Shown here piece by piece: positions 49,403 to 64,000 of a stretch of DNA of 64,000 bases; within the stretch, counting starts at the first letter, position 1, and each line of letters starts with the position of its first letter. The stretch lies in assembly GCA_963676395.1 (NCBI GenBank), contig OY781066.1, positions 1,536,001-1,600,000 on the forward strand. The letters run 5' to 3'. The translations under genes and the position numbers were made by a program. The notes beneath the pieces were generated by a model. The model worked only from the letters and a program-made list of their open reading frames with translations. It was not told the DNA's origin and made no database searches. This stretch comes from a bacterium. Lineage in GTDB: Bacteria > Fidelibacterota > Fidelibacteria > Fidelibacterales > Fidelibacteraceae.

Positions 49403-51763
49403 TTATTTAACGAACGCGATCTTCTGTACATCAACGACATCTTCAACCATAATTTTAACTAGGTAAAGACCTGTCGTCATATTGTTGGCAGTAATTTTAA
49501 GTTCATGAGAGCCAGCGTTCATCGTGCCGTTGGCCAATGTTGCAATTTCACGACCTGTTAATGTGTAAACTTTAGCGTTTACAACAGCTTCGCGTGAAAG
49601 TTCTACAGGAACAACCGCTGTAGGATTGAAAGGATTCGGATAGGCAGCACCGATCACGAAATCAGCTTCGACAACATCGTTGGCAAGTGTCACGGTAACA
49701 GCTTTGTCAGCGTATTTTGTTTCTTCGTTTGCGTAATCAACATCAGCTAGAACATAGGTGTAAGCAACACCGGGAACAACGCTTGCATCAGTATAAACAT
49801 AGTTGTTTGTTTCTGATGTTGTACCGGCACCTTCTACAGTGGCCAATACCTCGTTATTACGGTAGATCACAAAGTTAGCATTGTTAGTTTCAGAAGCAGT
49901 TTCCCATGCTAGTTCAATCACACCGGCTTTTGCTTTGGCTGTGAAAGCGGCAAGCTCTACAGCAAGAGGTTGTTCAATGTCATGTGTACCAGGAGTAGCA
50001 TTGCTAATCGCATTCATGTTCCAGTCAGAAGCTGTATTGCCTTCACCTGTCCTCCAAGCTCTTTGACCGCTTGATAATTGTTGATTTGTATATTCATTGT
50101 CAGCTATTGGATCAATATTAGTACCTGTTGCATCTTCGAATAGATATTGTTCGTCACCATTAATTTGGGGACATGCATTCTCTGAATTCACAAAAACAAC
50201 ATTCGCAGCTAAGGAAACTGACCATTCAGTTTCAAAAGCAGCTTGATCCATATTACGTGCTACAATTAAGAAACCCTTGGCAGGAATTGAGGTTGACGCA
50301 GGTATTGTGAAACTTTGAGTTGAACCAATTTGTCTTAAAACATAACTTGAAACATTTACAGCTGAGTTTGTTGAGTTGTAAATTTCAACGTATTCTCCAG
50401 CATAGTTGGCTGCGTCAGCATATTCGCTGATATAAACTCCACTACCTGTAGGCAATGCATCTGTTGTCTCTGAAACAGAGGGCACAACACCATCTGTTTT
50501 GTAATCAATGGCTTCGCCTGAGTTATTATATGGATAGATCTTGAATGTATATGCCGTTTCGGGGTCTAATCCTGTTACTGTAGCTGAAGTGCCACTAACA
50601 TTTTGAACGCTGTCAGCATTCACGATATCAATTTCATCAACAGGAATGTCACCCGTTGCTGTAACAATATAGCCATCTGCATCAGGTGTATTAGGGTCTG
50701 TCCATGATAAGGTAACTGATGTAGATGTTTTTGAGTCGGCAGAAAAATCAGTAATATGAGATGCGGGTTCAGTTTTCCACACATTACCATTTAAAGTAGT
50801 GTTTTTTGTAACTGCACCAGTAGAAGTTGCTGAGATAGTTTCTACATCATAACTGCCAGCACTTAATCCGGCCTTTAATCTTGTATAGATTGTTGTGGCA
50901 GCAATTGAGCCACTTAACTGTGTTAAAGTAATAGGATTAGTTGCAATAAAAGAACCACCGGTTCCTGTAGAAATCTCATAATTTGTGGGAGGAGTAACAG
51001 TAATGTTTGCGGTTAGGTCAGAGCCAGAAACAGTATAAGATTGTTCATACGATGGACCTGAACCCTCAACATATGAAAAACCTGATAATGACGTTTCACT
51101 CACAGTAATTACAGGAGAAGAACCAGCAGCAGTTGTGATAACGATATTATCAAGATAGATACTTTCATCGGTAGCGGTTAGTCCATTAAACTGAAGTTTA
51201 ATTACTAGACTTGTCCCTGAAATTGAAACATTATCTTTTGTAAATGTTTCAAAAGTAGTTCCATCTACTTTATTTTCAGGATCTGAATTCGCTGGTAATT
51301 CTTGTCCGATATCACCATTACCATCAAAGTCTAGATCAAGAGCAGCCGGATCATTGTATTGTTCACCAGTATTTTGAACCCACATAAGATTTTGATCAGC
51401 CCCTCCATCAACAGAGTATGTAATTAACAGTTCATCATTATCGTCCCAATCATTTGCATTTTTCGTAAAAAAATCAATGGAGAAAGAGAATGTTGATTGT
51501 GAGGAAATATCAATTGGTGAGAGGGTAATATTGGGATTTACTAGTGAAATATCTTCGCAAGCCCAATAAAAAGTCGCGTTGCCTCCATAAGAAGTATTCA
51601 CTCGGTTAAACACATCTGTTGTACCAGAACCCTCTGTAGCAGATGCAGTATAACCACTGTTTTCCGTTTCAAAATCAATGGTTGTTGTTGCACCCATCGC
51701 AACAACACTGATCAGTAGCGTAAGTAGTAAGGCAGATGTTAAAAGTTTAGCAATTTTTGTCAT
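49403..51763 (-). CDS. Secreted lamin-tail-domain/FN3 protein with T9SS-like C-terminal tail
   Basis: Signal peptide; FN3 (TGLDPETAYTFKIYPYN); LTD (ISEY..EYVEIYN..TPG); PLAVELAAF linker; AYPNPFNP tail. Confidence 0.85.
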   Translation of the reverse strand: MTKIAKLLTSALLLTLLISVVAMGATTTIDFETENSGYTASATEGSGTTDVFNRVNTSYGGNATFYWACEDISLVNPNITLSPIDISSQSTFSFSIDFFTKNANDWDDNDELLITYSVDGGADQNLMWVQNTGEQYNDPAALDLDFDGNGDIGQELPANSDPENKVDGTTFETFTKDNVSISGTSLVIKLQFNGLTATDESIYLDNIVITTAAGSSPVITVSETSLSGFSYVEGSGPSYEQSYTVSGSDLTANITVTPPTNYEISTGTGGSFIATNPITLTQLSGSIAATTIYTRLKAGLSAGSYDVETISATSTGAVTKNTTLNGNVWKTEPASHITDFSADSKTSTSVTLSWTDPNTPDADGYIVTATGDIPVDEIDIVNADSVQNVSGTSATVTGLDPETAYTFKIYPYNNSGEAIDYKTDGVVPSVSETTDALPTGSGVYISEYADAANYAGEYVEIYNSTNSAVNVSSYVLRQIGSTQSFTIPASTSIPAKGFLIVARNMDQAAFETEWSVSLAANVVFVNSENACPQINGDEQYLFEDATGTNIDPIADNEYTNQQLSSGQRAWRTGEGNTASDWNMNAISNATPGTHDIEQPLAVELAAFTAKAKAGVIELAWETASETNNANFVIYRNNEVLATVEGAGTTSETNNYVYTDASVVPGVAYTYVLADVDYANEETKYADKAVTVTLANDVVEADFVIGAAYPNPFNPTAVVPVELSREAVVNAKVYTLTGREIATLANGTMNAGSHELKITANNMTTGLYLVKIMVEDVVDVQKIAFVK

Positions 51764-52626: not shown

Positions 52627-53619
52627 TTACATCAATACCACTGCTAAACCCACAAAGTAAAAATCATCGATATTTCGTAGTTGGCCGTGGGGGTTGATAC
52701 CGTGGTAGAGTCTTAAATAAGCACCGACTTTCCGTTGGCTTTTACTTTGATATTCCCAGCCGAAATAGGCATTTATATTCCAACGGCGAGCTTCGGGATC
52801 ATTCGCAAAGTAACCATATTTTACACGGTTTCTAAGCTCAATGGCATTGATTTGATGAAATAATTCGCTGGCACCTAATCCTTGAGTTCTACGCCAATTG
52901 ACTTGTAGCCAATACGAGAAGACATCCTTGCCGGGTAGCAAATCTTGTCCCTGCGTTTCGAGAAGATTATATTGGTAATAACCATCTTTAGCAAACCAAA
53001 CACGTTGTATGCCAATCCTTGCAGATAGCAGATTTCCTTTTAGCGTGTCGGGATCATTGATGGTCAATGCGACTTTCCAGGCTTCGTAGGAGACATTAAC
53101 TCGATAAAAATCCGGGTTAAGATTTATGCCTTCCATGACGAATTCATCCCCCAAATGTGTGCTTTCATGATACATTGGAACAATAATAAGCCCGAGATTC
53201 CTGATGCCTAAGCTTTCTATAGAAGGATGATAAATAACAGACCTGAGTTCCGAACCCAGCCAATAATCCGTGTTGATCACCATTCTTGTTGTGGGTTCAA
53301 GACTATCTAAAATAATATTAAAGGATCCTGTTATTAGTAACGTACTTTTTATGTGACCTTTTTGTAATTTTTTATAATATGACAAGAAGGGGATGTCAGT
53401 ACCGACACGACCCTCGGATACGGGACGTTTGTGATAGTCGGGTTTATGGTATAATTCCCCAAGGTCATTGATAAAGCCTTCTTCAAATTTGATCACAGAT
53501 GAATACATGTCAGATACAAAAGGTTTTCCAAAACGTTCCGGTGTGAAGAACTTATACTCGACGGCAAACAGTGAGCCGGCTAGAAGTATAAGCATGCAGA
53601 TTTTATAAAGCTTTTTCAT
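52627..53619 (-). CDS. DUF1207-like outer-membrane beta-barrel protein
   Basis: Signal peptide; INTDY, YHESTHLGDEF, RVNVSYE, YHGINPHGQ; amphipathic strands. Confidence 0.6.
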   Translation of the reverse strand: MKKLYKICMLILLAGSLFAVEYKFFTPERFGKPFVSDMYSSVIKFEEGFINDLGELYHKPDYHKRPVSEGRVGTDIPFLSYYKKLQKGHIKSTLLITGSFNIILDSLEPTTRMVINTDYWLGSELRSVIYHPSIESLGIRNLGLIIVPMYHESTHLGDEFVMEGINLNPDFYRVNVSYEAWKVALTINDPDTLKGNLLSARIGIQRVWFAKDGYYQYNLLETQGQDLLPGKDVFSYWLQVNWRRTQGLGASELFHQINAIELRNRVKYGYFANDPEARRWNINAYFGWEYQSKSQRKVGAYLRLYHGINPHGQLRNIDDFYFVGLAVVLM

Positions 53620-54247
53620 GAGTTTTTCTTTTTTTATTGTGATTGATCGTGATGAAGATCAGTCCAAGACAGGAAAATGTGATAAGGATCAATAGAATAA
53701 TGAGTAAATAAGTACCAATCCCCAATGTTTTATAATTTAAAAAGAAATAGCGACTCCGGTAGAAAAAATTCAGTTCAATGATTGAAAAGAAATAATAAAT
53801 AAGGGGATAAATAAGCCAGGAAAAAGCATATTTCCAGCGGTAAACTCCTGTTTGAACACTACGAAGAGTATCAATGGTGAGTAAAACTGCGGTGAGACCA
53901 TGATTAACATACAGTACGATCTTGTTTAAACCTTGTGCTTCGACGCGATTTGTCAGGAGCGCAAGAAAAACCAGTGATGTGGTCATGATATACAGTAATA
54001 CCGCACCGCGAAACCATGGATGAACACCATTGTCACCTTTGCCTTTGAGTTGTGTGATAATGAGCCAAAAAAATAACAAACAGGCCATGATCCCGGATTG
54101 AACAGTGTAATAGCCCAACATATCTAAGGCAGGGTTTATCGTGCTGTCACCAAGCGGATGGGCAAAACGATATGTTATGCCAAAAAGGGCAATTGACAGT
54201 GAGATGATCCTGAAAATCAGAAGTTTTATATTGAGTTTAGATCTCAT
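53603..54247 (-). CDS. Pr6Pr / FAR-17a-AIG1-like membrane protein
   Basis: GYYTVQS, RGAVLLY, VNH, WLIYPLIY, YFFLN. Confidence 0.75.
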   Translation of the reverse strand: MRSKLNIKLLIFRIISLSIALFGITYRFAHPLGDSTINPALDMLGYYTVQSGIMACLLFFWLIITQLKGKGDNGVHPWFRGAVLLYIMTTSLVFLALLTNRVEAQGLNKIVLYVNHGLTAVLLTIDTLRSVQTGVYRWKYAFSWLIYPLIYYFFSIIELNFFYRSRYFFLNYKTLGIGTYLLIILLILITFSCLGLIFITINHNKKRKTHEKAL

Positions 54248-54884
54248 CTTCTGGTTCAATGGTATCTTTTGTTCGATTAATAAAAATTATCAACAAGGAT
54301 AAGGCAATAAATACAAGCCCCAAAAGAATAATGGCAATGGGGTAAAGTCTAACATTTTGTTCATTTATGGCAATAAAACGATATCGATCAAAATACAGAG
54401 TATAGGATTCGACAATGATAAAGATAAGATAATAAAAGGGGAATATCATCCAATATAGTAATAGATCATATTTATATGTGTTTTGGGGGATGCTTATATA
54501 ATTATCTGCCAACAGAAAGATTGGAAAAGAAATATGAGCAAAATAATAAATAACTTTTTGCAAACCGTAAATATCAAAATCTTGATGAAAAAACACAACG
54601 AATACCAAGGCTGAAACTCCGGAGTAAACCAGAGTAGCCCCTCTGAAATTATTGTTGGGTGCCCATTTGGGATTTCCGCTTAACTGGGCGATACTTAAGA
54701 AAAGGAAAATGATCGTAGTCATAAGCATTGATACGACAGAAAAATATCCCAATATCTTGAGTATATTAATATAATTCAGTTCATATAAGGGATTTATGAA
54801 CAGAATATATATCATGCAAAATATAGTAATCAAAGATACTATGATACGATAAGTAAGAATTTTCTTTTCTAGTTCCTTTGTCAT
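54237..54884 (-). CDS. Pr6Pr-like membrane protein (tandem paralog)
   Basis: GYFSVVS, FRGATLVY, FAHISFP, WMIFPFYY; colinear with its neighbour. Confidence 0.7.
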   Translation of the reverse strand: MTKELEKKILTYRIIVSLITIFCMIYILFINPLYELNYINILKILGYFSVVSMLMTTIIFLFLSIAQLSGNPKWAPNNNFRGATLVYSGVSALVFVVFFHQDFDIYGLQKVIYYFAHISFPIFLLADNYISIPQNTYKYDLLLYWMIFPFYYLIFIIVESYTLYFDRYRFIAINEQNVRLYPIAIILLGLVFIALSLLIIFINRTKDTIEPEDEI

Positions 54885-55038: not shown

Positions 55039-55065
55039 AAAAAAGGGCGACTAAAGAGCCGCCCG
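55039..55065 (-). terminator. Intrinsic terminator ending the 5'-nucleotidase operon
   Basis: Minus strand GGGCGGCT-CTTT-AGTCGCCC followed by T6. Confidence 0.85.
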
Positions 55066-55085
55066 TAAATTATCTGAGATAATGA

Positions 55086-56720
55086 TTATTTAATAATTGT
55101 CCATCGTTGATCAATTTGGGTTGTTGGCCCAAACTCCAGGATATAGTCACGCAATGCTTCGCGCATCATGCGTCCGGTATTAATTCGTTTCTCAACCGGG
55201 ATAGTCGTTAAGCGATCATAGCCCGAGTTTCCTTCGGCAAGATAATCGGATACGGCGATCTTGTAAATGGCTTTTGGATCAAATTCTTTACCTTGTATCT
55301 TTTTAATGGTAGCGCGTTCACGGTCGGGATTGCGTTTATCAATAACAACCTCAATACCTGAAGCAAGCATGCCGCGAGAATTACCCTTTACGCGATCTTC
55401 GATTAGCTCGTCCAGTTCGGCACCTGTCATTTGAAATACAACAATGCGGTTTCCAAAAGGCAAGAATCGGAAAAGAGCCTCGTAGGTTAAAGGACCGGCT
55501 TCAAGGTCGGAACGCAGTCCACCGTAATTGGAGAAAGCCACATCGGCATCTCCGGCCCAGGCAACTGCATCACAAAGCAGGTTACCCAAAATTGATTGAC
55601 CTTCGTTTGCGCGACGCAGAGGTGAGGGCAAGACGGTCAAAACTTGGTCAAAGCCTTCTTCGGCAACAGCTTTGCGGGCTTCGATCATGGCATCTACATC
55701 TTCATCGATCCAGAATTCATCTTCCAGTAGTGTAACAAAGGAAGATCCATCCACCTCAAAATCATAACCGGCGAGGGTTTTAGTTTTTTTATGGATGTAA
55801 AAATTCACCATACCCAAGTTTGTTCCGTTACCGTAGTTCTGAAAGATCAGAGTATGGTTAATGGGATCTTCGTAGGGTTCGGTAAAACCTTTGTGAACGT
55901 GGCCTGTGAACATGACATCGATACCGGGAACCGATACGGCAATTTCCATAGCGGGAGCACCCATTTTGTTTTCATCCGGCCATTCGCCACGCAGGAGCTC
56001 TTCATGAAGTTTTGCGGCTTCTTCATCGCGATTGTAAGGAGTCCAGGAGTGCGTAGATAAAATAATTACATCCGCACCTTCTTCCTTCATAATGGGAATC
56101 CATTTCTTGGCTGTTGTGATCTCGGGTAAAAAGGTAATACCTTCCAAGTGCTCCGGAAAGCTCATAGCCGGTGTTACGGAAGTACCGATACCCAAAATAC
56201 CCACTTTTATACCGTAGATATCTTTAATGATATACGGTTTTAAAAAATCGGCAATTTCACCGGTCTCGGAATTGACGATATTGGCACCAAGGAAAGGAAA
56301 ATTTGCTTCCTTAGCACGTTTGCGTAGTTCCGTGTGACTCTTGTCAAAGTCGTGATTTCCGGCTGTTAAAAGGTCGTATCCAATCGCATTCATGAATTCC
56401 ACAACCGCAGCGCCTGCAGTTTTTGAACCGACGGGTGTTCCTGAAAAGAAATCACCTTCATCGATAAGCAGCGTGCCAAAACCTTCGGCTTCCGCTTGAG
56501 CACGAATGGTTTTTACAATGCGTGCAATCGCTGGAGCTGACCCGATCTTTGGCGGAAACTGTGGATTCATAAAGGTTGCTTCGGTGCGGGGAATACCACC
56601 ATGCACATCATTGGTGAACATCACCATAATGCGCTGGTACTCAGAGGCAGGGTATTTTTCCGCAAAGAGCGCGCCGATCAGCAGAGTGAAAACGACGATC
56701 TTCTTTATTGTATTCAGCAT
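55086..56720 (-). CDS. Exported bifunctional metallophosphatase / 5'-nucleotidase (UshA-like)
   Basis: Signal peptide; TNDVHG, DEGD, GNHDFD, GHVH; C-terminal domain with NYGGLR, LPFGN, DYLAEG..GY. Confidence 0.93.
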   Translation of the reverse strand: MLNTIKKIVVFTLLIGALFAEKYPASEYQRIMVMFTNDVHGGIPRTEATFMNPQFPPKIGSAPAIARIVKTIRAQAEAEGFGTLLIDEGDFFSGTPVGSKTAGAAVVEFMNAIGYDLLTAGNHDFDKSHTELRKRAKEANFPFLGANIVNSETGEIADFLKPYIIKDIYGIKVGILGIGTSVTPAMSFPEHLEGITFLPEITTAKKWIPIMKEEGADVIILSTHSWTPYNRDEEAAKLHEELLRGEWPDENKMGAPAMEIAVSVPGIDVMFTGHVHKGFTEPYEDPINHTLIFQNYGNGTNLGMVNFYIHKKTKTLAGYDFEVDGSSFVTLLEDEFWIDEDVDAMIEARKAVAEEGFDQVLTVLPSPLRRANEGQSILGNLLCDAVAWAGDADVAFSNYGGLRSDLEAGPLTYEALFRFLPFGNRIVVFQMTGAELDELIEDRVKGNSRGMLASGIEVVIDKRNPDRERATIKKIQGKEFDPKAIYKIAVSDYLAEGNSGYDRLTTIPVEKRINTGRMMREALRDYILEFGPTTQIDQRWTIIK

Positions 56721-56759
56721 AATGTGCCTTTTACTTTTTCGTTATAACATTCTTCTTTA

Positions 56760-58088
56760 TCAGAAGCTGTACGATAATGAAACATTCGCCCTTAAACCTT
56801 GTTCCTTGACTTTGTCAAGCGAGGTTCTAACTTCTCCTTCAACAGGGAAAAGATCTTTGTAATAGTACATGTTCTGATAAATAGCCAGGCCTAGATCCAG
56901 TGTTAAGTTATCATTGGACCAGCCTGAACCCAAGTTAATGGTCATGCGGTTCATGTCATTGTGCATGGGGTTTTCTTCATATGAAAATCCGAAACGAAGA
57001 GGAACACCGGTAAAGAATTCATGTTCAACACCGGCACGAAGTGCCCATGATGCCGAGAATTCAGGAGAATACAGGTTCACAAGTGAGTCTGCAGAATCAA
57101 AGTAACCGATGGCGTATGATTTCCAGTCGGTAATATCAAATTGTGCGAACAGAACCGTACGTAATTCGTTTTCGGGAATATATTTAACAGAGAATGAATA
57201 TACATTGGGACGATCAATGATCACATCATAAGAAGTGTCGGCAGAAACATTGTAGGCGGGAAGCATAAGTGAGCTATCCATACCGGCAACGAGATTTGAA
57301 CCTTCCAATGTATAAATACCGGCCAGGTTGGCGTGAAGACCCAATTGAAGTCTATCGTTTACCTGTGCGCTAATACCTAAGTTAATATTCGTACCATCAC
57401 CATTCATGGGATTGACTGTTACAAAGGTAGTATCCTTTGATGAAAGCTTAGGATCGTTCATAATGGGAACAACACCAAAAGCCTCTGTCAGTCCGGCTGA
57501 AAAATAATGTGTATAACCGTAACCTATAGCCAAGCGTTTGCCGATATCATGTGCTATGGCTACATTGAATCCATGGTTGATACCTGAGATATCAATGAGG
57601 TGCAAACCGGCCAAAGGATCACGGTTGTAGGCGCCGCTTCCCAAGTCACTGCGAATTTCTTCACGATACTGATAATTAAAGTTTTCCAGCGTATACCAGC
57701 CGGCCGTTAATGAGAAACCTTTTTGTGAGTAATACATGGCAAGGTCGCCTTCAAAGCGTTGAAAACGGTTTGAGACATAGTCATTTTCGGCAAGGTAATC
57801 GCCGAAGCTATCCTGAACGGGGAAAGAACGGCGTTCGATAAATGACTCTGTATTCAAATTAGCATAGATGCCAAAAGCATCATCTTTAGAATAGAGAGTC
57901 GCCGGGTTGTTTAAACCTGCTACGGGGTGCAACCCCAAAGCAAGTGCATTACCACCAACTGCCAATGAACGAGCGGATTGTTTGTTAAAGTTCTCCATAC
58001 CCATATATTTAAAATAGGCCTGGCCGAACGCGAATCCCACGCTTAGACAGATGATCAATAATAATGTTAAAAGGTGTTTGCGAGTCAT
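56760..58088 (-). CDS. Outer-membrane beta-barrel (FadL/PorV-like)
   Basis: Signal peptide; plug motif SARSLAVGG...NNPATL; amphipathic strands; C-terminal SYSF. Confidence 0.75.
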   Translation of the reverse strand: MTRKHLLTLLLIICLSVGFAFGQAYFKYMGMENFNKQSARSLAVGGNALALGLHPVAGLNNPATLYSKDDAFGIYANLNTESFIERRSFPVQDSFGDYLAENDYVSNRFQRFEGDLAMYYSQKGFSLTAGWYTLENFNYQYREEIRSDLGSGAYNRDPLAGLHLIDISGINHGFNVAIAHDIGKRLAIGYGYTHYFSAGLTEAFGVVPIMNDPKLSSKDTTFVTVNPMNGDGTNINLGISAQVNDRLQLGLHANLAGIYTLEGSNLVAGMDSSLMLPAYNVSADTSYDVIIDRPNVYSFSVKYIPENELRTVLFAQFDITDWKSYAIGYFDSADSLVNLYSPEFSASWALRAGVEHEFFTGVPLRFGFSYEENPMHNDMNRMTINLGSGWSNDNLTLDLGLAIYQNMYYYKDLFPVEGEVRTSLDKVKEQGLRANVSLSYSF

Positions 58089-58108
58089 ACTCTTTTCCTT
58101 TTTATAAT

Positions 58109-60568
58109 TTAAAAGCGGTAATCCAGTTGGAGCCTGAAATCATTCTTGCTCATATTATAATTAAAGTTGCTCAACTGGAGCTGCGAACCGTCATCCAGTT
58201 CTATATAAGCTTCAACGATATTATCCTGTGTGAGACGGGTATCCACGGTGTACTTGAAGCGTAGGGACAGGTTGTCTGTAATACGTGAGTACAAGGTGAT
58301 CCAACCACGGAAAGCATCTACGGGAGAATCGGTCACGCGGAAATCCGTATCCTCAAAGTTCCAGATAAAGCCATTGTAGACCATGGCGGAGCCAATGATC
58401 TTCAGGCGATCGTTAAAGTTATGTGTAAATCCCATGCGGATACCTTTTGACGGGGATCCTGCATTTCCAACAAAGGAGCTGCCACCACTGGTGGTATAAA
58501 CCAACCGGGCTCTCGGTGAGAATTCCGTGTAACCGTAGATCAAGTCAAAATGCAACTTGTTAAAACGTGACAAACGGAATTCGTTGGTTAGGATAGTCTC
58601 GTAAGAGCGGTATACATTTGATGTAAAGAAGTTTTCACCGTAACGGCTTTGCCATTTTTGACGTAGTCGCACACGATAGTTGAATACCGGACGGTATTCC
58701 ATTCTTGCTACCAAACGATTGTATTTTGCACGGTCTGCAGCGCGCTCCCAGATATCGTGTTCAACGGTCGCTATTAGCGAGCGAGAAAGCTGATAACGGA
58801 AGGAATAATATAAACCTTCTTCGGATTGCGGTTGCGAAGATCCCGAATAGAGGAAGCCGTAAGCATCATCATTCAGGTAGTAAATATCTTCGTAGATCGT
58901 GGTTTTATAACGGGCATAGTTCGAAAATGAGCGCTGGTAGGGATTATCGAAGGCTAGATCATAATTCCTGTATAGCGCAAGAAAGTTTAAGTTCTCGAAT
59001 TGCCAGTACATATTCACGGTCCATGCAAAAGCATCTTCGGAGATATTGAATATCTTGCCGTCTTTATCAAGAATACCCAGTTCTCCCTGAAATACAACAT
59101 TCTTAAGAGAATAGGAAAAATCCATTCCCATCACACGGCGATAGGCTTTGGCTTTGCTCCACAAACCGGATCGAGCGTTCGATTCGTAGGTGGCTGCAAT
59201 TTCGGCATCTGCCGAGTTTCCTATTTGGTTGAGGTATTTTGACATGTTTGCGATAATGACCTCGGGTTGGAAATCCAACTGACGGTCATAAAGACTTTCG
59301 TAGAAAGTAAAGCCCAGGTGACCATTGGGGATAGGCTTAATACGAATGTTAGAACCGTAAAGCAGTTCGTGAACATTGTTCATAAGTCCCAATGACACAT
59401 TGCCGCCCAAACCATTGTCCAATCTCGGTTCCATACGAATGAAGGTCGAGAATGAAGAGTCAGGATTCAGGATAGCATCACGGGTATTGTATCCAACGAA
59501 AGGTGTAATAAACAAAGGACCTGCCTGATATTCAAAGGTAAAACCGTTTTGTGAGTAGGCACGGGCACGAGAGGCATCACCGTTAATACCGATAAGTCGC
59601 TTACGCCAGCCGTAACCGGATTTTCGCGGTGCGAAATAATCCACGGTTTCCATTACCACACCTTGTCCGAAAGATGCAATGTAGTTACCGGCAATAATCT
59701 TATTGATCTTGCCGAACTTGCCTAAATCAATATTACGTGCGGAAACATAAGCTTTTACCTGTGGAATTTTCGAGCTGTCTCCAAAGGTGGGAATGTTTTC
59801 GCTAAGCGATTGAGTATAAGCAAGCCCTAGTGAGTATTTTTGACCATAATTCAAGTGGAACTTATAATATTGATCCAAAGGATACTTATCGTAAACCGTT
59901 TGATCCAGAAGTGATCCACCGTCATCAGGTGTTATCTGAGCGGCAAAGTCTTTAATGGTAGCTGTTGCGTAACCGTTAAATTTTTCTTTATCGTCAGACG
60001 AGTATTTTACGTAATCGGATATATTTCTGTATCCGTAATATGAAATGCCGTTTAGTCCGCGCAGGTCACGGGAGGTTTTGATCTCGTTTCCATCTTTGAT
60101 ATGTTTCATCACGGCTGCAGCATCAATAGGAGAAACTGCAGGGAGGTTAACAAGATCGAAATAGTGCATCCCGTTCACATCCCGGGGATTTGTAAAAAGA
60201 TCAATCCAGGATTCGACCAGGCCTTCGGAGGCTCCTTCATCATTCATCATATTCTCAAGCTTATAGTATCGATCTTCTATCTTGCTTGAGGTTTCGTCGA
60301 TATTAATTTTAGGGAAGATGGCGACTTCTTGTTTTAAGACAAGAAATTCTTCATAGCTGATCCCTTTGATATCTTTGATCTGATAAATGGATGTAAATTC
60401 ACCATGGTAAAGGAGATATTCTTCCAAAAGAAGAATGGTATTCTCCGATACCGGGAGATCTTTCAGAGCATCCGCGGAGGCATTGTTGATGTCAAGCTTT
60501 GCTGTTGCCGACAGCATTGCGGGCAGCAGAAAAGCGATCAAACATAATATGTGAAAAGTTTTTTTCAT
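58109..60568 (-). CDS. Outer-membrane barrel protein with N-terminal ComEA-type helix-hairpin-helix domains
   Basis: Signal peptide; LDINNASADALKDLP..GEFTSIYQIKDIKGI and DVN..DLVNLPAV..DLRGLNGI; GNYIASFGQGVV; C-terminal QLDYRF. Confidence 0.8.
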   Translation of the reverse strand: MKKTFHILCLIAFLLPAMLSATAKLDINNASADALKDLPVSENTILLLEEYLLYHGEFTSIYQIKDIKGISYEEFLVLKQEVAIFPKINIDETSSKIEDRYYKLENMMNDEGASEGLVESWIDLFTNPRDVNGMHYFDLVNLPAVSPIDAAAVMKHIKDGNEIKTSRDLRGLNGISYYGYRNISDYVKYSSDDKEKFNGYATATIKDFAAQITPDDGGSLLDQTVYDKYPLDQYYKFHLNYGQKYSLGLAYTQSLSENIPTFGDSSKIPQVKAYVSARNIDLGKFGKINKIIAGNYIASFGQGVVMETVDYFAPRKSGYGWRKRLIGINGDASRARAYSQNGFTFEYQAGPLFITPFVGYNTRDAILNPDSSFSTFIRMEPRLDNGLGGNVSLGLMNNVHELLYGSNIRIKPIPNGHLGFTFYESLYDRQLDFQPEVIIANMSKYLNQIGNSADAEIAATYESNARSGLWSKAKAYRRVMGMDFSYSLKNVVFQGELGILDKDGKIFNISEDAFAWTVNMYWQFENLNFLALYRNYDLAFDNPYQRSFSNYARYKTTIYEDIYYLNDDAYGFLYSGSSQPQSEEGLYYSFRYQLSRSLIATVEHDIWERAADRAKYNRLVARMEYRPVFNYRVRLRQKWQSRYGENFFTSNVYRSYETILTNEFRLSRFNKLHFDLIYGYTEFSPRARLVYTTSGGSSFVGNAGSPSKGIRMGFTHNFNDRLKIIGSAMVYNGFIWNFEDTDFRVTDSPVDAFRGWITLYSRITDNLSLRFKYTVDTRLTQDNIVEAYIELDDGSQLQLSNFNYNMSKNDFRLQLDYRF

Positions 60569-60583
60569 GCGTTTGCCAATGCT

Positions 60584-61486
60584 TTATGGTTTGTAGATCT
60601 CCACTGTGAAAAAGTGCGTTCCGTTCAGTACCGGGTGGCTGACGTAGGCATAATCTATTCTAAAAATAGATTGTTTTACACCAAAGCCAAAGGTCAACTG
60701 TGAGGGATAAGTAGATACGCCGGCACGAACGTTGAACCATTCGCTGATGGCATAATCCAGTCCCATACGGTACTGAGCATCAAGTCCCTGGACTTTTTCC
60801 ACTTCAAAGGAGGTGGTTAATCCATAGTAGGGCATGTAACCCAAGCCGGCCACGAATTTACGAGGCGCCATGGCTTCGGTTTCCGAAGAACCCAATTTGG
60901 GAGCATTGATGTTTTTAATGGCAATGCCCATCCAGGCACGATCTCTTAATGACGCTTGCAGACCCAAGTCAACACCAAGACCGGCAACCGAACCGAGGTC
61001 GATACCATCGGAGCCGTCACCGCTTTGTCCGGCAGATTGTCCGTAATCCACTAGCAGCAAGTTAAGAGAATAACCGGCGCTGAAAGATGAGCGCAGATCT
61101 TTGATAAGATGGAAAGCATGGGTTACACCCACGGCGTTTTCCGAGCTGAGAATGTTGTCACCGTTTTTGGTGCGAAGCATATCTCCGTGCAGGGAAACAC
61201 TTCCATATTTTTCGTTGATCGGAAGCGTTGCGGTGAACATGGCAAGTGAAGCAAAGCCATATGAACCCGGGTTGGTATAGGCAAAACCACCGCCGATATT
61301 ATCAACGAATGCCAAGCCGGCCGGGTTGTATGAATGTGCCCACATACTCTGGTTCACAGCCACCTGAGCACCACCGCTTGCCGCACCCGCAGCCGCTCCG
61401 GGCCATGAGTCGGTAAACACTTGTGCTGAAAGGCTGGCGATCAACATAATAGATATAAGTAATCGTTTCATAAGCATGTATCTCAT
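60584..61486 (-). CDS. PorV/PorP-SprF-like outer-membrane barrel (T9SS cargo-adaptor-like)
   Basis: About 300 aa with signal peptide; YNPAGLA, DLGLQ, KNINAP, DYAYVSHPVLNGTH; start overlaps the upstream stop (TAATG). Confidence 0.72.
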   Translation of the reverse strand: MRYMLMKRLLISIMLIASLSAQVFTDSWPGAAAGAASGGAQVAVNQSMWAHSYNPAGLAFVDNIGGGFAYTNPGSYGFASLAMFTATLPINEKYGSVSLHGDMLRTKNGDNILSSENAVGVTHAFHLIKDLRSSFSAGYSLNLLLVDYGQSAGQSGDGSDGIDLGSVAGLGVDLGLQASLRDRAWMGIAIKNINAPKLGSSETEAMAPRKFVAGLGYMPYYGLTTSFEVEKVQGLDAQYRMGLDYAISEWFNVRAGVSTYPSQLTFGFGVKQSIFRIDYAYVSHPVLNGTHFFTVEIYKP

Positions 61487-63450
61487 TAGTTTTTAATGGC
61501 GATGACCACGGGTTGAGCCAAACGTGTGACTTTACCGGTGGAGCGTTCAATAACTTCCATATGCATCAGGTAAGTACCGGGAGCAAGACTGCGATTGAGT
61601 TCGTCTCGACCGTTCCAGTTTTTCTCCAGTGACCAACTTACACCGTGATATTCATCGGTGAGCGTGGTGATATAACGACCTGCAGCATCATATACACGAA
61701 TGATCACACGGGCTTCATCGGGATATTCGTATGTGTATTGAATGGTTTCGCCAAGTTGAGGTACAAAGGGATAAGGTGCAACGTTCAAGGAAACATTGCC
61801 TGCGCCCGGTTCACCATCGGTCCATGCGACAATATCCGAAGCATAAGCCGGCGTCATCTGTGCCGAATTGCTGTAGAACCCAACAATACCTGTAACTTCT
61901 ACGGCGTTTCCGCTTTGAAGAAGTGAATCGGCTGTTGCATCCGAGAGGAGATTTGTCGAATCCCAAATGCGCAGGGTCAATGACTGGTTCCCATCGTCGA
62001 TCGTGATATTAGAACCGCCGCCAATACCGTCTGCACGGTCGGTGACCTGTCCCTTAACCGTAACTAATGTACCTTCGAGTTCCATAAAGTTATTATTCAA
62101 TGCAGCGTTGCTCAATTCGGCGATAGCGGGAAGATCCGTTGTGCCTTTTGCAACTGCCGTTACATCTTTAATCTGTTTGGAATCGTTATATTGTGAAAGC
62201 GTACCTGTTACTTCAACGATAGTACCGCGTGCAAAGCCGCTCATAGCTGAGCCAAACACATAAATTCCGCGACCGGAATCATCTTGAATGTAAGAAGCAT
62301 AGGTGTTGATAAGTCCCATTTCAACCGTTACAACGGCTGTAACCGTTACGGTTGTTTCTTCTAAAGTGTCAAAGTTGTTACGCAGGTAAGCAATGGATTG
62401 AGTTTCAACAAAAGCCTCAATGCTTTTTGAGGAAGCTAAGGTCGAGTCTTTAAGCCCCAATGTGTTTTCTGCACGAACATAGTAGGTAAAAGTACCCGTT
62501 GCTCCGAGAGGGGCAATGCTGAGTGCGTAGCTGTTTGCTTCGTCACCGGCGGGCATATCTACGATCTCGGTCGTTCCGTCAAAAGTATAAACACATTCAA
62601 CCGAAGATAAACCTTGAACATCAACAACCGTGGCTGAGATATGCAGGGTATCGTTTTCATTGGGTGACGTGGGGTCAAAAACAACATTACTGAGAACCGG
62701 ACGTGATGAAGCCAACGTTGTTACCTGCCAGGTTGTACCCAGATTTTCAGAGGTTTCATCGTTGCCGGTGATACCATTACCGCCGGATGTGGTTTCTGAC
62801 CCTTCGCTTTCATCAATACGTGCCAGCTTTTCACCGTCTATATGCACGGGCAAGGAAGCCTGGCTTGTAACCGGTGTATCGTTTAGGTAAGTGGCCACAC
62901 CGCTTTTATTAACGCCATGTGAGGTATTACCCCAAAGTAAGTAATCAACGTCCTGAACCGTTGCCGCCGAACCGTCCCATGTGAACAGGACAAGGGTCTC
63001 AGCAGTGTTATCCAGTTTTGCGTTAGGTGAAGCCCCGATGGTTTTTACGCCATCAACGGCATAACGCATGGTGTCGTTACCGCTACCTTTAAGGTAAAGA
63101 TCCGGGAGTTCACCGTATTCGCTTTGATAGTCCGAATCACGGCCTAGTCCCAATGTGATGCTTTCGCCGGCTGCCAAAGACATAGCAGGGAAGCGGGCGA
63201 TAAAATCGGATCCGCTGCCTGACCAATAATCGGCGCCATCGGCGAGTTTGTAATAGTATTTTCCGTTTGTCGTATCGGTTGCATCGGTAATATAGTAATT
63301 ATCAAGAGAAATGGCCGAAGCGGTCGGATTCTTGATTTTTACATATTCGCCGGTGGAAGGCTGGAGCACCACTTCAGTGAAGATAAGGTGCCCCTGAGCC
63401 ATTGCCAATATCGGCAAAAGGAAGAGGATGAATAGATTGCGTAGTTTCAT
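61486..63450 (-). CDS. Secreted lamin-tail-domain + OB-fold protein with FlgD-Ig / type-B-like C-terminal sorting domain
   Basis: Signal peptide; FTEV..GEYVKIKNP (LTD); YIQDDSGRGIYV and IDDG..LRIW (OB folds of the type found in extracellular nucleases); RVYDAAGR..WNGRD..PGTY tail. Confidence 0.8.
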   Translation of the reverse strand: MKLRNLFILFLLPILAMAQGHLIFTEVVLQPSTGEYVKIKNPTASAISLDNYYITDATDTTNGKYYYKLADGADYWSGSGSDFIARFPAMSLAAGESITLGLGRDSDYQSEYGELPDLYLKGSGNDTMRYAVDGVKTIGASPNAKLDNTAETLVLFTWDGSAATVQDVDYLLWGNTSHGVNKSGVATYLNDTPVTSQASLPVHIDGEKLARIDESEGSETTSGGNGITGNDETSENLGTTWQVTTLASSRPVLSNVVFDPTSPNENDTLHISATVVDVQGLSSVECVYTFDGTTEIVDMPAGDEANSYALSIAPLGATGTFTYYVRAENTLGLKDSTLASSKSIEAFVETQSIAYLRNNFDTLEETTVTVTAVVTVEMGLINTYASYIQDDSGRGIYVFGSAMSGFARGTIVEVTGTLSQYNDSKQIKDVTAVAKGTTDLPAIAELSNAALNNNFMELEGTLVTVKGQVTDRADGIGGGSNITIDDGNQSLTLRIWDSTNLLSDATADSLLQSGNAVEVTGIVGFYSNSAQMTPAYASDIVAWTDGEPGAGNVSLNVAPYPFVPQLGETIQYTYEYPDEARVIIRVYDAAGRYITTLTDEYHGVSWSLEKNWNGRDELNRSLAPGTYLMHMEVIERSTGKVTRLAQPVVIAIKN

Positions 63451-63461
63451 AGTCACTCTTC

Positions 63462-64000
63462 TTATTTAATGAGAACAACTTTCTGAGTTGCGACATTGTT
63501 GTCAGCATTCAAGCGAATAAAATAAACACCTGATGTGAAGTTTGACGCATTCCAGACGTATTTATAAACACCGGCTTGAGCGTAACCCGATGAAAGGACA
63601 CTCATGTTCTGACCGGCGATATTGTAAACCGAGATCTCATAATCGGATGCTTCCGTTAATGAGAATTCAATGGTTGTTGAAGGGTTAAAGGGGTTAGGGT
63701 ATGCTTTGTTAATTGCAAAGCTTTCGGGGGTACAGTCTTCGCAAATGCTTACATCATCTGTAATGTCATCGCTGTAACCAACGAGTAATTGATGTTCGCT
63801 TGAGTATTTGCTGCCTACACCTGTGATGGCATATTCTGTACCAATGGTGTAAGTTGAAGGATCAATTCCGGTGGTTGGCCATACTTTAACAATGGCTGAG
63901 TCAGTTCCCGAGGTTAAGATCATATTCTTGGAGGATGAGAAATCTTGAACTTCGGAAAGTGTACCGGTAACGGTAACCAATGTACCTTCGTAATTATCGT
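63462..64000 (-). CDS. Secreted OB-fold protein with T9SS-like C-terminal tail, partial (5' end outside the window)
   Basis: Frame open to the window end (..DNYEGTLVTVTGT..); OB-fold-like repeat; AYPNPFNP...KVVLIK. Confidence 0.85.
   Translation of the reverse strand, partial: DNYEGTLVTVTGTLSEVQDFSSSKNMILTSGTDSAIVKVWPTTGIDPSTYTIGTEYAITGVGSKYSSEHQLLVGYSDDITDDVSICEDCTPESFAINKAYPNPFNPSTTIEFSLTEASDYEISVYNIAGQNMSVLSSGYAQAGVYKYVWNASNFTSGVYFIRLNADNNVATQKVVLIK

Follow-up and report, generated by a model that had tools for sequence, protein, structure and literature searches.

The stretch of DNA analysed here (the window; 64,000 nucleotides, positions 1,536,001 to 1,600,000 of contig OY781066.1 from a Fidelibacteraceae genome) ends in an operon of six genes, termed g1 to g6, all of which lie on the reverse strand. 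With a probability of roughly 0.55, we propose that this operon encodes an outer-membrane machine that is linked to the type IX secretion system (T9SS), is independent of TonB, captures extracellular nucleic acid, imports it into the periplasm and salvages nucleotides. The operon encodes two exported cargo proteins (g1 and g2), a small barrel on which the tail of g2 is predicted to dock (g3), a large barrel with two fused ComEA-type helix-hairpin-helix (HhH) modules (g4), a FadL-like barrel (g5) and a 5'-nucleotidase (g6). The source genome consists of one contig of 2,335,625 bases and is 95% complete.

The first gene, g1, is cut by the window end (63462 to beyond 64000) and continues to window-equivalent position 65999 (L003:462-2999), which gives a product of 845 amino acids (aa). 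It is followed by g2 (61486-63456; 656 aa), which encodes the second T9SS-type cargo, g3 (60584-61486; 300 aa), a PorV/PorQ-like small outer-membrane barrel and the proposed dock of the g2 tail, g4 (58109-60568; 819 aa), which combines a signal peptide, two HhH modules and a barrel, g5 (56760-58088; 442 aa), a FadL/TodX-like outer-membrane barrel with a C-terminal Phe, and g6 (55086-56720; 544 aa), a UshA-like 5'-nucleotidase with a signal peptide. The original prediction of six co-oriented, closely spaced genes with one terminator is borne out by the coordinates of the open reading frames (ORFs), which leave gaps of 5, -1, 15, 20 and 39 nucleotides (nt) from g1 to g6, the negative value reflecting a TAATG overlap of g2 and g3 at 61486, and by an intrinsic-terminator-like hairpin directly 3' of g6 (55064-55045 on the reverse strand; 8 pairs, 6 of them GC, with a T run). 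The sequence past the window end, 5' of g1, contains a promoter-like site and a hairpin as well as a divergent gene for a GT2 glycosyltransferase, which indicates that the operon comprises these six genes. The GC content of the operon is 43-50%, as compared to 33-39% in the flanks and 38% in the genome.

The gene order is conserved well beyond the source genome. A scan for relatives with one genome per species yielded 278 stretches that encode a g4 relative, of which the best 80 were analysed; g3 was considered adjacent if its end was located at most 400 nt from the start of g4, and only loci with room for the neighbor were counted. Among these best 80, g3 adjoins g4 in 62 of 62 loci, cargo with LTD and OB domains is encoded upstream in 46 of 46, and g5 and g6 follow g4 in 50 of 51, the exception being L009, in which the ORF call for g5 merely overlaps g4. 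A second, more distant set consisted of 79 metagenome loci around remote g4 relatives, which were searched with profiles from Marinimicrobia proteins. In these, g3 was adjacent in 50 of 56 loci and cargo was present in 33 of 43, while g5 and g6 occurred together in 33 of 44, were both absent from 9 and occurred singly in 2. Because of these distant-locus counts, we consider cargo-g3-g4 to be the constant core, to which the g5-g6 pair is usually added. The gene order is thereby kept across Marinimicrobia/Fidelibacterota, in the 80 genome loci, and for the most part in the 79 metagenome loci, which settles the synteny check proposed at the outset and is more than chance.

In total, the g4 family has 164 members at E <= 1e-30 among 1.84 billion cluster representatives. 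Named sources among ten distant representatives are Edwardsbacteria, WOR-3, TA06, Gemmatimonadota and one metagenome-assembled genome (MAG) labelled Elusimicrobiota, and Calditrichota names also occur among the homologues. Relatives with the first four of these names retain most of the gene order. A g4 gene is also found on L066 (genome G302), which belongs to the Flavobacteriales by its record label alone. Spread beyond the phylum via contigs L077, L051 and L079, which are labelled Winogradskyella, Lentisphaeria and FCB group, was considered and rejected: their genomes belong to the same GTDB phylum as the window, and the labels are thus no sign of spread to Bacteroidota. The entire operon is present on contig L038 of a UBA2242 genome. 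Enrichments that were fed with DNA have yielded a MAG of this Marinimicrobia class, UBA2242 (PMC8630151).

Within the phylum, g4 was identified in 32 of the 60 genomes that are at least 90% complete (E <= 1e-20) and in 0 of 27 members of one family with genomes of about 1 Mb; a looser tally of 225/301 genomes includes HhH-only matches to small ComEA-like ORFs. This distribution agrees with the prediction that the 819-aa protein is not a generic core part of the T9SS. That g3, g4 and g5 are general T9SS or outer-membrane assembly parts, placed by chance next to cargo and nucleotidase genes, is suggested by the resemblance of g3 and g5 to PorV/PorQ/PorP and FadL/BamG barrels and by the presence in the genome of SprA and about 75 type A tails. 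We regard this as highly improbable, given that g4 was found in only the said 32 of 60 near-complete genomes, that g3, g4 and g5 are single-copy in the source genome and the g2 tail is unique in it, that their association with OB/LTD cargo and the nucleotidase is kept across phyla, and that control complexes of g3 with unrelated partners scored 0.00 (see below).

The protein at the center of the proposed nucleic-acid machine is g4. In its AlphaFold model (pLDDT 79, pTM 0.74; input alignment of 30 sequences), two helical modules are followed by 24 long strands. HhH module 1 corresponds to residues 23-88 (60305-60502, reverse strand, as for all features of the operon), module 2 to residues 125-190 (59999-60196), and the barrel of about 24 strands, which ends in Phe, to residues 197-819 (58112-59980). 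The modules thus occupy the first 190 residues of g4, a barrel protein of 819 aa, unlike ComEA, which is a small free or anchored periplasmic protein. A profile of the g4 family matched the ComEA structures 8dfk (E 9.1e-7) and 8dss (E 3.5e-6) as well as the double HhH of the nuclease-domain protein EEPD1 (E 4.6e-14), and many g4 homologues carry a precomputed match to PF12836. Module 2 aligns to module 1 (hhalign probability 97.1%, E 6.5e-11) and is, judging by this alignment, a diverged copy of it.

The turns on the N-terminal side of the modelled barrel comprise only 2-5 residues, whereas the loops on the opposite side reach up to 47 residues. In general barrel topology this is the usual sign of a periplasmic end, and the HhH modules would thus be located on the periplasmic side. 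The predicted architecture of a barrel with two ComEA-type HhH modules is therefore recovered in the structure model, with the modules at the periplasmic end. Conservation in g4 is highest in loops 3 and 7 and in strands 13-17, of which strands 16-17 are basic, with alternating Arg/Lys of which several are invariant; invariant residues in the family are R609, R618, K638, Q640, R642, R686 and R688. The barrel part matches no model in Pfam or NCBIfam, and g4 has no match to the usher family in Pfam. Also, no match to Plug or TonB_dep_Rec was obtained for g4, g3 or g5, nor to CarboxypepD_reg for any of the three, in a genome that encodes 15 TonB-receptor plugs.

The cargo proteins contain domains of the kind found in nucleic-acid binders. 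The structure model of g2 (pLDDT 87.5) consists of an LTD (residues 20-245; 62722-63399), an Ig domain (residues 253-350; 62407-62700), two tandem OB folds (residues 355-546; 61819-62394) and a special C-terminal sandwich (residues 556-656; 61489-61791). The LTD scores 38.3 bits and the OB fold 34.3 bits (tRNA_anti-codon) in Pfam, and the two are present in 29 of 29 and 23 of 29 members of the g2 family, respectively. With the whole model as query, the top Foldseek match was 5z7d, the p204 HIN-dsDNA complex (E 1.5e-8); the TM score is low, as is usual for a multidomain chain. In VIA-align comparisons, the second OB fold matched the anticodon-binding OB folds of AsnRS/AspRS (Z 12.5) and HIN domains (Z 11.1-11.3; IFI16 HIN, Z 11.3), and p202 HIN2 spans both OB folds (166 residues, Z 11.2, root-mean-square deviation [rmsd] 6.4). 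These comparisons bear out the expectation of OB folds of the nucleic-acid type in the cargo. We also scanned 13 cargo proteins encoded immediately upstream of g3-g4 in distant loci, of which four match DUF5689 over the entire model and above the Pfam cut-off (48.5, 54.2, 43.4 and 28.9 bits) and three more score slightly below it.

The domain order of g1 is a signal peptide, an LTD (59.1 bits), a K319L-like PKD domain (55 bits), a second LTD, a weak OB-like region and a type A T9SS C-terminal domain. The tail is identified by both TIGR04183 (52.5 bits, cut-off 23) and PF18962, Por_Secre_tail (46.1-50.5 bits), and is of a type common to about 75 other ORFs of the genome. Of the OB-fold protein with a YPNPFNP tail that had been predicted, the tail is thus recovered, as type A, while the OB region gives weak matches only. 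The suggestion that the truncated first gene might carry a nuclease failed, as the domain scan of the completed 845-aa protein identified no nuclease domain. For g2, the predicted LTD and two OB folds were confirmed; the tail, described as FlgD-like, is a divergent FlgD_ig-like domain that occurs nowhere else in the genome and is strongly conserved within the g2 family. No match of g2 to TIGR04183 or PF18962 was obtained, only one to the tail region of the PorU model (21.6 bits). With a type A tail in g1 and a divergent tail in g2, the logic of type B cargo and a neighboring PorP barrel, on which the original prediction drew, is not applicable.

A dock for the divergent tail is suggested by g3. 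This protein scores 52 bits against the PorV/PorQ family NF033709 (cut-off 90), and its Atlas neighbors are PorV/PorQ or DUF5723 clusters of Fidelibacterota, so that the proposed PorV-like nature of the 300-aa barrel holds as a family likeness below the cut-off. Modelling of g3 in complex with residues 545-656 of g2 gave scores of 0.86, 0.86 and 0.88, as compared to 0.00 for the best of three controls; among solved complexes, 116 of 157 reached this mark, as did 2 of 215 mismatched pairs. At least 96% of the contacts agree among the runs, and the pLDDT of the partner is at least 87. On the g3 side the modelled interface involves an invariant Gly/Ser-rich loop (residues 148-162), and on the g2 side the invariant residues P561, E570, R587, D590, G593, G627 and P649 together with the residues flanking the invariant Y629. 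The complex model thereby supports g3 as the dock of the g2 tail.

This docking would also fit a module for surface binding and adhesion without import, in which the cargo ties the cell to extracellular DNA of particles or the biofilm matrix, g3-g5 serve as anchors and the HhH modules interact with another periplasmic partner. The arrays of LTD, Ig, PKD and OB domains are adhesin-like, adhesin repeats are indeed among the Foldseek matches of g2, along with PorZ (5m11) and PorU (6za2), and the HhH hairpins of g4 are degenerate. Adhesion would leave unexplained, however, a 24-strand barrel with conserved basic strands in its lumen, a periplasmic 5'-nucleotidase in the operon and the Nuc-type nucleases in distant loci, and we consider it very unlikely.

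The last two genes encode the FadL-like barrel and the UshA-like 5'-nucleotidase that had been predicted. The score of g5 against Toluene_X (PF03349) is 25.1 bits and remains below the family cut-off of 29.7, and Toluene_X is annotated on 70% and 28% of the members of its nearest Atlas clusters. The translation of g6 shows the motifs DxH, GD, GNHD and GHxH and matches Metallophos (46.3 bits, cut-off 21.5) and 5_nucleotid_C (109.1 bits, cut-off 23.6); at 186.7 bits against the UshA model (cut-off 600) it is not an UshA equivalog. Since g6 carries a signal peptide but lacks a T9SS tail, it is probably periplasmic. Over the 95 loci of both sets, g5 and g6 were both present in 83, both missing in 9 and represented by one only in 3, and g6 is kept with the operon, as expected if the nucleotidase is part of the system. 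A role of g5 as the dock of a second cargo was considered and rejected, as single-cargo loci keep g5 and g5 tracks g6.

The nucleotidase and the basic barrel strands could also belong to a system for another phosphorylated or anionic substrate, such as RNA, nucleotides, polyphosphate, teichoic-acid-like polymers or nucleotide sugars, with g4 as an anion-selective channel. UshA-type enzymes cleave UDP-sugars and NAD too, going by the names of NCBIfam models alone, basic lumen strands would suit any polyanion, and the second cargo-barrel locus of the genome (described below) contains a glycerophosphodiester phosphodiesterase gene. We nevertheless find such a substrate quite unlikely, since the ComEA-type modules, the HIN-like OB pairs, DUF5689 and the Nuc-type nucleases point to nucleic acid, which may also be RNA.

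Nuclease genes were recovered from distant loci and from elsewhere in the source genome. In 14 of the 79 distant loci, g5 is directly followed by a gene for a protein of about 185 aa that has a signal peptide and one PLD/HKD motif and that we take to be a nuclease of the Nuc type; the PLDc_2 scores are 93.8 and 89.7 bits and the HxK motif is present. In these metagenome loci (L115:13507-14052, L123:8896-9465 and 12 more), the Nuc-type gene is located between g5 and a short g6-like gene, whose product of about 290-307 aa has lost the metallophosphatase motifs and has no Pfam match. Genes for ABC importers were identified beside some distant loci, and a gene for a DHH/DHHA1 phosphoesterase beside one. 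In one distant locus, g5 and g6 are separated by an inserted restriction-modification cassette (L164:14534-17575), which encodes a BsaWI-like endonuclease as well as two N6/N4 methylases. The source genome encodes two endonuclease I proteins (G000:C1:1734567-1737674, forward strand, 1035 aa, and 1885070-1886857, forward strand, 595 aa), both with a signal peptide, fn3 domains and T9SS tails, which by these features are probably the secreted DNases of the organism. Three small EEP proteins with a signal peptide are also encoded in this genome.

Also present in the source genome are SprA, ComEC, DprA and a separate, canonical ComEA of 123 aa that is membrane-anchored. No secretin was identified in this genome, and likewise secretins were found in 0 of 13 genomes of the genus to which the window belongs, 0 of 27 in family f10 and 0 of 12 in family f24, while most other genomes of the phylum encode one to several. 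The operon could thus serve mainly natural transformation, with g4 admitting transforming DNA and handing it to ComEA and ComEC, and the nucleotidase clearing the degraded strand. The presence of ComEC, DprA and a canonical ComEA, the lack of secretins in the 13 genus genomes searched, and the related DUF5689 system of Riemerella, which serves transformation (PMC8459023), are consistent with this. On the other hand, secretins also occur in most g4-bearing genomes of the phylum, the 5'-nucleotidase is retained in the operon (50/51 and 34/44 loci), there is no competence gene within or beside the operon, and the Nuc-type nucleases and ABC importers of distant loci point to catabolism. Transformation as the main function therefore appears unlikely to us.

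Under the proposed capture and import of nucleic acid, g1 and g2 would be exported by the type IX system, and their LTD, Ig and tandem OB (HIN/DUF5689-like) domains would bind DNA at the surface, a step that we infer because of the folds and the homology in distant loci. The conserved sandwich of g2 would then dock on g3, according to the complex model, and keep g2 on the cell, in a similar way as PorZ sits on PorQ. The DNA, or fragments of it produced by the T9SS-secreted pair of endonuclease I proteins, would cross the 24-strand barrel of g4, the lumen of which is predicted to be lined by the conserved Arg/Lys stripes, and the periplasmic ComEA-type modules may hold the entered DNA against backsliding, as a binding ratchet. 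In the periplasm, the strand would either enter the ComEA/ComEC/DprA route or be degraded, with g6 converting the resulting 5'-nucleotides to nucleosides and phosphate for uptake. Finally, g5, which travels with g6, is possibly a channel for small products. A more specific proposal, which we put forward tentatively and with considerable doubt, is that g4 represents a novel type of DNA translocon in the outer membrane, one that employs neither a pilus secretin nor TonB, in which a 24-strand barrel with a built-in ComEA-type ratchet is fed by T9SS-exported OB binders on a PorQ-like dock.

Several observations weigh against the proposal that the operon captures and imports nucleic acid. No nuclease was identified in g1-g6 or the flanks by the domain scan, nor in the 80 Marinimicrobia loci with a PLD query, and g4 was not found in 28 of the 60 near-complete genomes of the phylum. 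On its own, g4 scores only 22.1 bits against HHH_3 (PF12836; cut-off 27), as well as 17.8 bits against TIGR01259 (cut-off 152), and module 2 alone has no Pfam match. The first hairpin of both modules is without the usual Gly-x-Gly (LP-VS and VSPIDA), which in ComEA contacts DNA, so that these sequences point to a possible loss of DNA binding by the g4 modules. The barrel has no specific solved relative and could not be assigned to a family by structure, as Foldseek and VIA-align gave a flat list of unrelated barrels (TM score about 0.3; Z 13.8-10.1) in which ushers, MtrB, TonB receptors and porins tie; FimD and PapC aligned over 363-370 residues (Z 13.2 and 12.9, rmsd 4.5-4.8), level with porins and TonB receptors.

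The cargo and its dock are affected as well. The score of g2 against DUF5689 (PF18942) is 22.3 bits (cut-off 28.6), only 2 of the 29 family members match at E <= 0.001, and a six-frame search of the source genome revealed no DUF5689 domain. The complex score may echo solved PorV-cargo complexes rather than this particular pair; given possible training on such complexes, the passing score of g3 and the g2 tail is to be taken as likeness and not as binding. Of 301 genomes of the phylum, 222 encode a secretin, and g4 is found in many of these, which led us to reject g4 as a replacement of the secretin across the phylum: it is no general substitute for the pilus secretin. The attribute pilus-independent in the original prediction accordingly applies to the genus of the window (0 of 13 genomes with a secretin) and not phylum-wide. 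The role of g5 remains unexplained by the proposal, and DNA binding, DNA passage and expression are themselves predictions from sequences and models.

Three genes of low GC content (33-34%) separate the operon from the fn3-LTD gene described next (52627-54884, reverse strand), one of which encodes a DUF1207 protein of 330 aa, while the other two overlap and encode proteins of about 215 aa each with no family match. At a distance of 3.3 kb downstream of the operon lies a gene for a 786-aa protein with fn3 and LTD domains and a T9SS tail (49403-51763, reverse strand); this has a weak match to a purple-acid-phosphatase N-domain and may be another surface protein related to phosphoesters. A second cargo-barrel locus was identified outside of the window (L181; G000:C1:2089520-2101901, reverse strand). 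Its genes encode two T9SS-tailed proteins (one of 716 aa and one of 883 aa whose N terminus is OB-like), a lipoprotein, a TonB-dependent receptor that carries a carboxypeptidase-regulatory-like domain, a UPF0164/PorV-like barrel of 319 aa, an NHL lipoprotein and a GDPD phosphodiesterase, in a layout that recalls DdbCD (see below).

Sea water and sediments, where Marinimicrobia are abundant and almost uncultured, contain large amounts of phosphorus, nitrogen and carbon in the form of extracellular DNA. To our knowledge, the crossing of the outer membrane by DNA is known in detail for pilus secretins only, and a TonB-dependent DNA route has been proposed for Bacteroidota. If our proposal is correct, an operon built around a barrel-fused receptor of the ComEA type would represent a third route of DNA across the outer membrane, would link the type IX secretion system to nutrient import and would provide a marker gene by which DNA scavengers could be recognized in metagenomes. 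If the more specific proposal on g4 as a translocon also holds, the operon would include the first T9SS cargo-barrel pair to act as the substrate-binding arm of an importer, and a single gate would feed both ComEC, with genes, and the nucleotidase, with food, in several phyla of the FCB group.

We compared the operon to known systems with similar components. In Porphyromonas gingivalis, PorV-PorU and PorQ-PorZ are the attachment pairs of the T9SS. The likeness to g2 and g3 consists of a C-terminal cargo domain that is held on a small FadL-like barrel, which here is a prediction of the complex model. The differences are that g3 is below the family cut-off, that the cargo is an OB/LTD protein rather than the sortase or its partner, and that the g2-g3 pair is tied to a large HhH barrel. 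The extracellular endonucleases ExeM/NucH (NF033681) share an N-terminal part with LTD and OB-like regions: g2 and g1 match profile positions of about 29-130, with a score of 27.3 bits, and of 26.4 and 21.8 bits in a second search, as compared to a cut-off of 300. The catalytic EEP domain of ExeM/NucH is absent from both g1 and g2.

As in the ComEA and PilQ systems of Vibrio, Neisseria and Thermus (summarized in PMC8459023), HhH modules of the ComEA type would be located in the periplasm at an outer-membrane conduit, and by analogy this suggests that incoming DNA is retained by binding. Unlike in those systems, the operon contains no secretin or pilus genes and the modules are covalently joined to a 24-strand barrel of the monomer type. 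The first hairpins of the g4 modules also differ from ComEA in lacking the usual glycines, and a canonical ComEA is encoded separately in the genome.

The closest parallels are found in Bacteroidota. In Bacteroides thetaiotaomicron, ddbABCDEF is required to deplete exogenous DNA; its products include three nucleases, DdbC, which is a TonB-dependent transporter, and DdbD, a DUF5689 protein that resembles the HIN domain of p202 (PMC12478041, PNAS 2025). Transposon mutants of Riemerella anatipestifer showed that natural transformation cannot proceed without the DUF5689 protein RA0C_RS04920, the neighboring barrel RA0C_RS04915 and the HhH protein RA0C_RS02645, in addition to ComEC, ComF, DprA and RecA (PMC8459023). 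Both systems share with the operon a clustered DUF5689/OB (HIN-like) surface protein and outer-membrane barrel, and a logic like that of a polysaccharide utilization locus without SusD, and an HhH protein is also on the route in Riemerella. The absence of SusCD noted in the original prediction was confirmed for g1-g6 and the flanking genes scanned, which have no SusC or SusD matches. The likeness to ddb in having cargo above the DUF5689 cut-off and a nuclease within the cluster is limited to the distant relatives of the operon.

There are several differences. Whereas DdbC is a TonB-dependent transporter, g4 is not a TonB-dependent receptor; the HhH modules, which in Riemerella belong to a separate protein, are fused to the barrel; and the binders carry T9SS tails and have a PorV-like dock in place of lipoprotein anchors. 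The operon in the window lacks a nuclease gene, while a 5'-nucleotidase and a FadL-like barrel are encoded in it, and the lineages of ddb and Riemerella belong to other phyla than the window. The original prediction of an undescribed DNA-utilization locus therefore needs qualification, since one such locus, the TonB-dependent ddbABCDEF, has been published, although not with these genes; our search of the literature, which was thin in subscription journals, yielded no description of this gene set. In summary, a DNA-utilization locus with a binder of the DUF5689 type is already in print for Bacteroidota. What is new here is a transporter family that has no Pfam model, no TonB parts and fused ComEA-type modules, together with the T9SS tails, the PorV-like dock and the constant nucleotidase.

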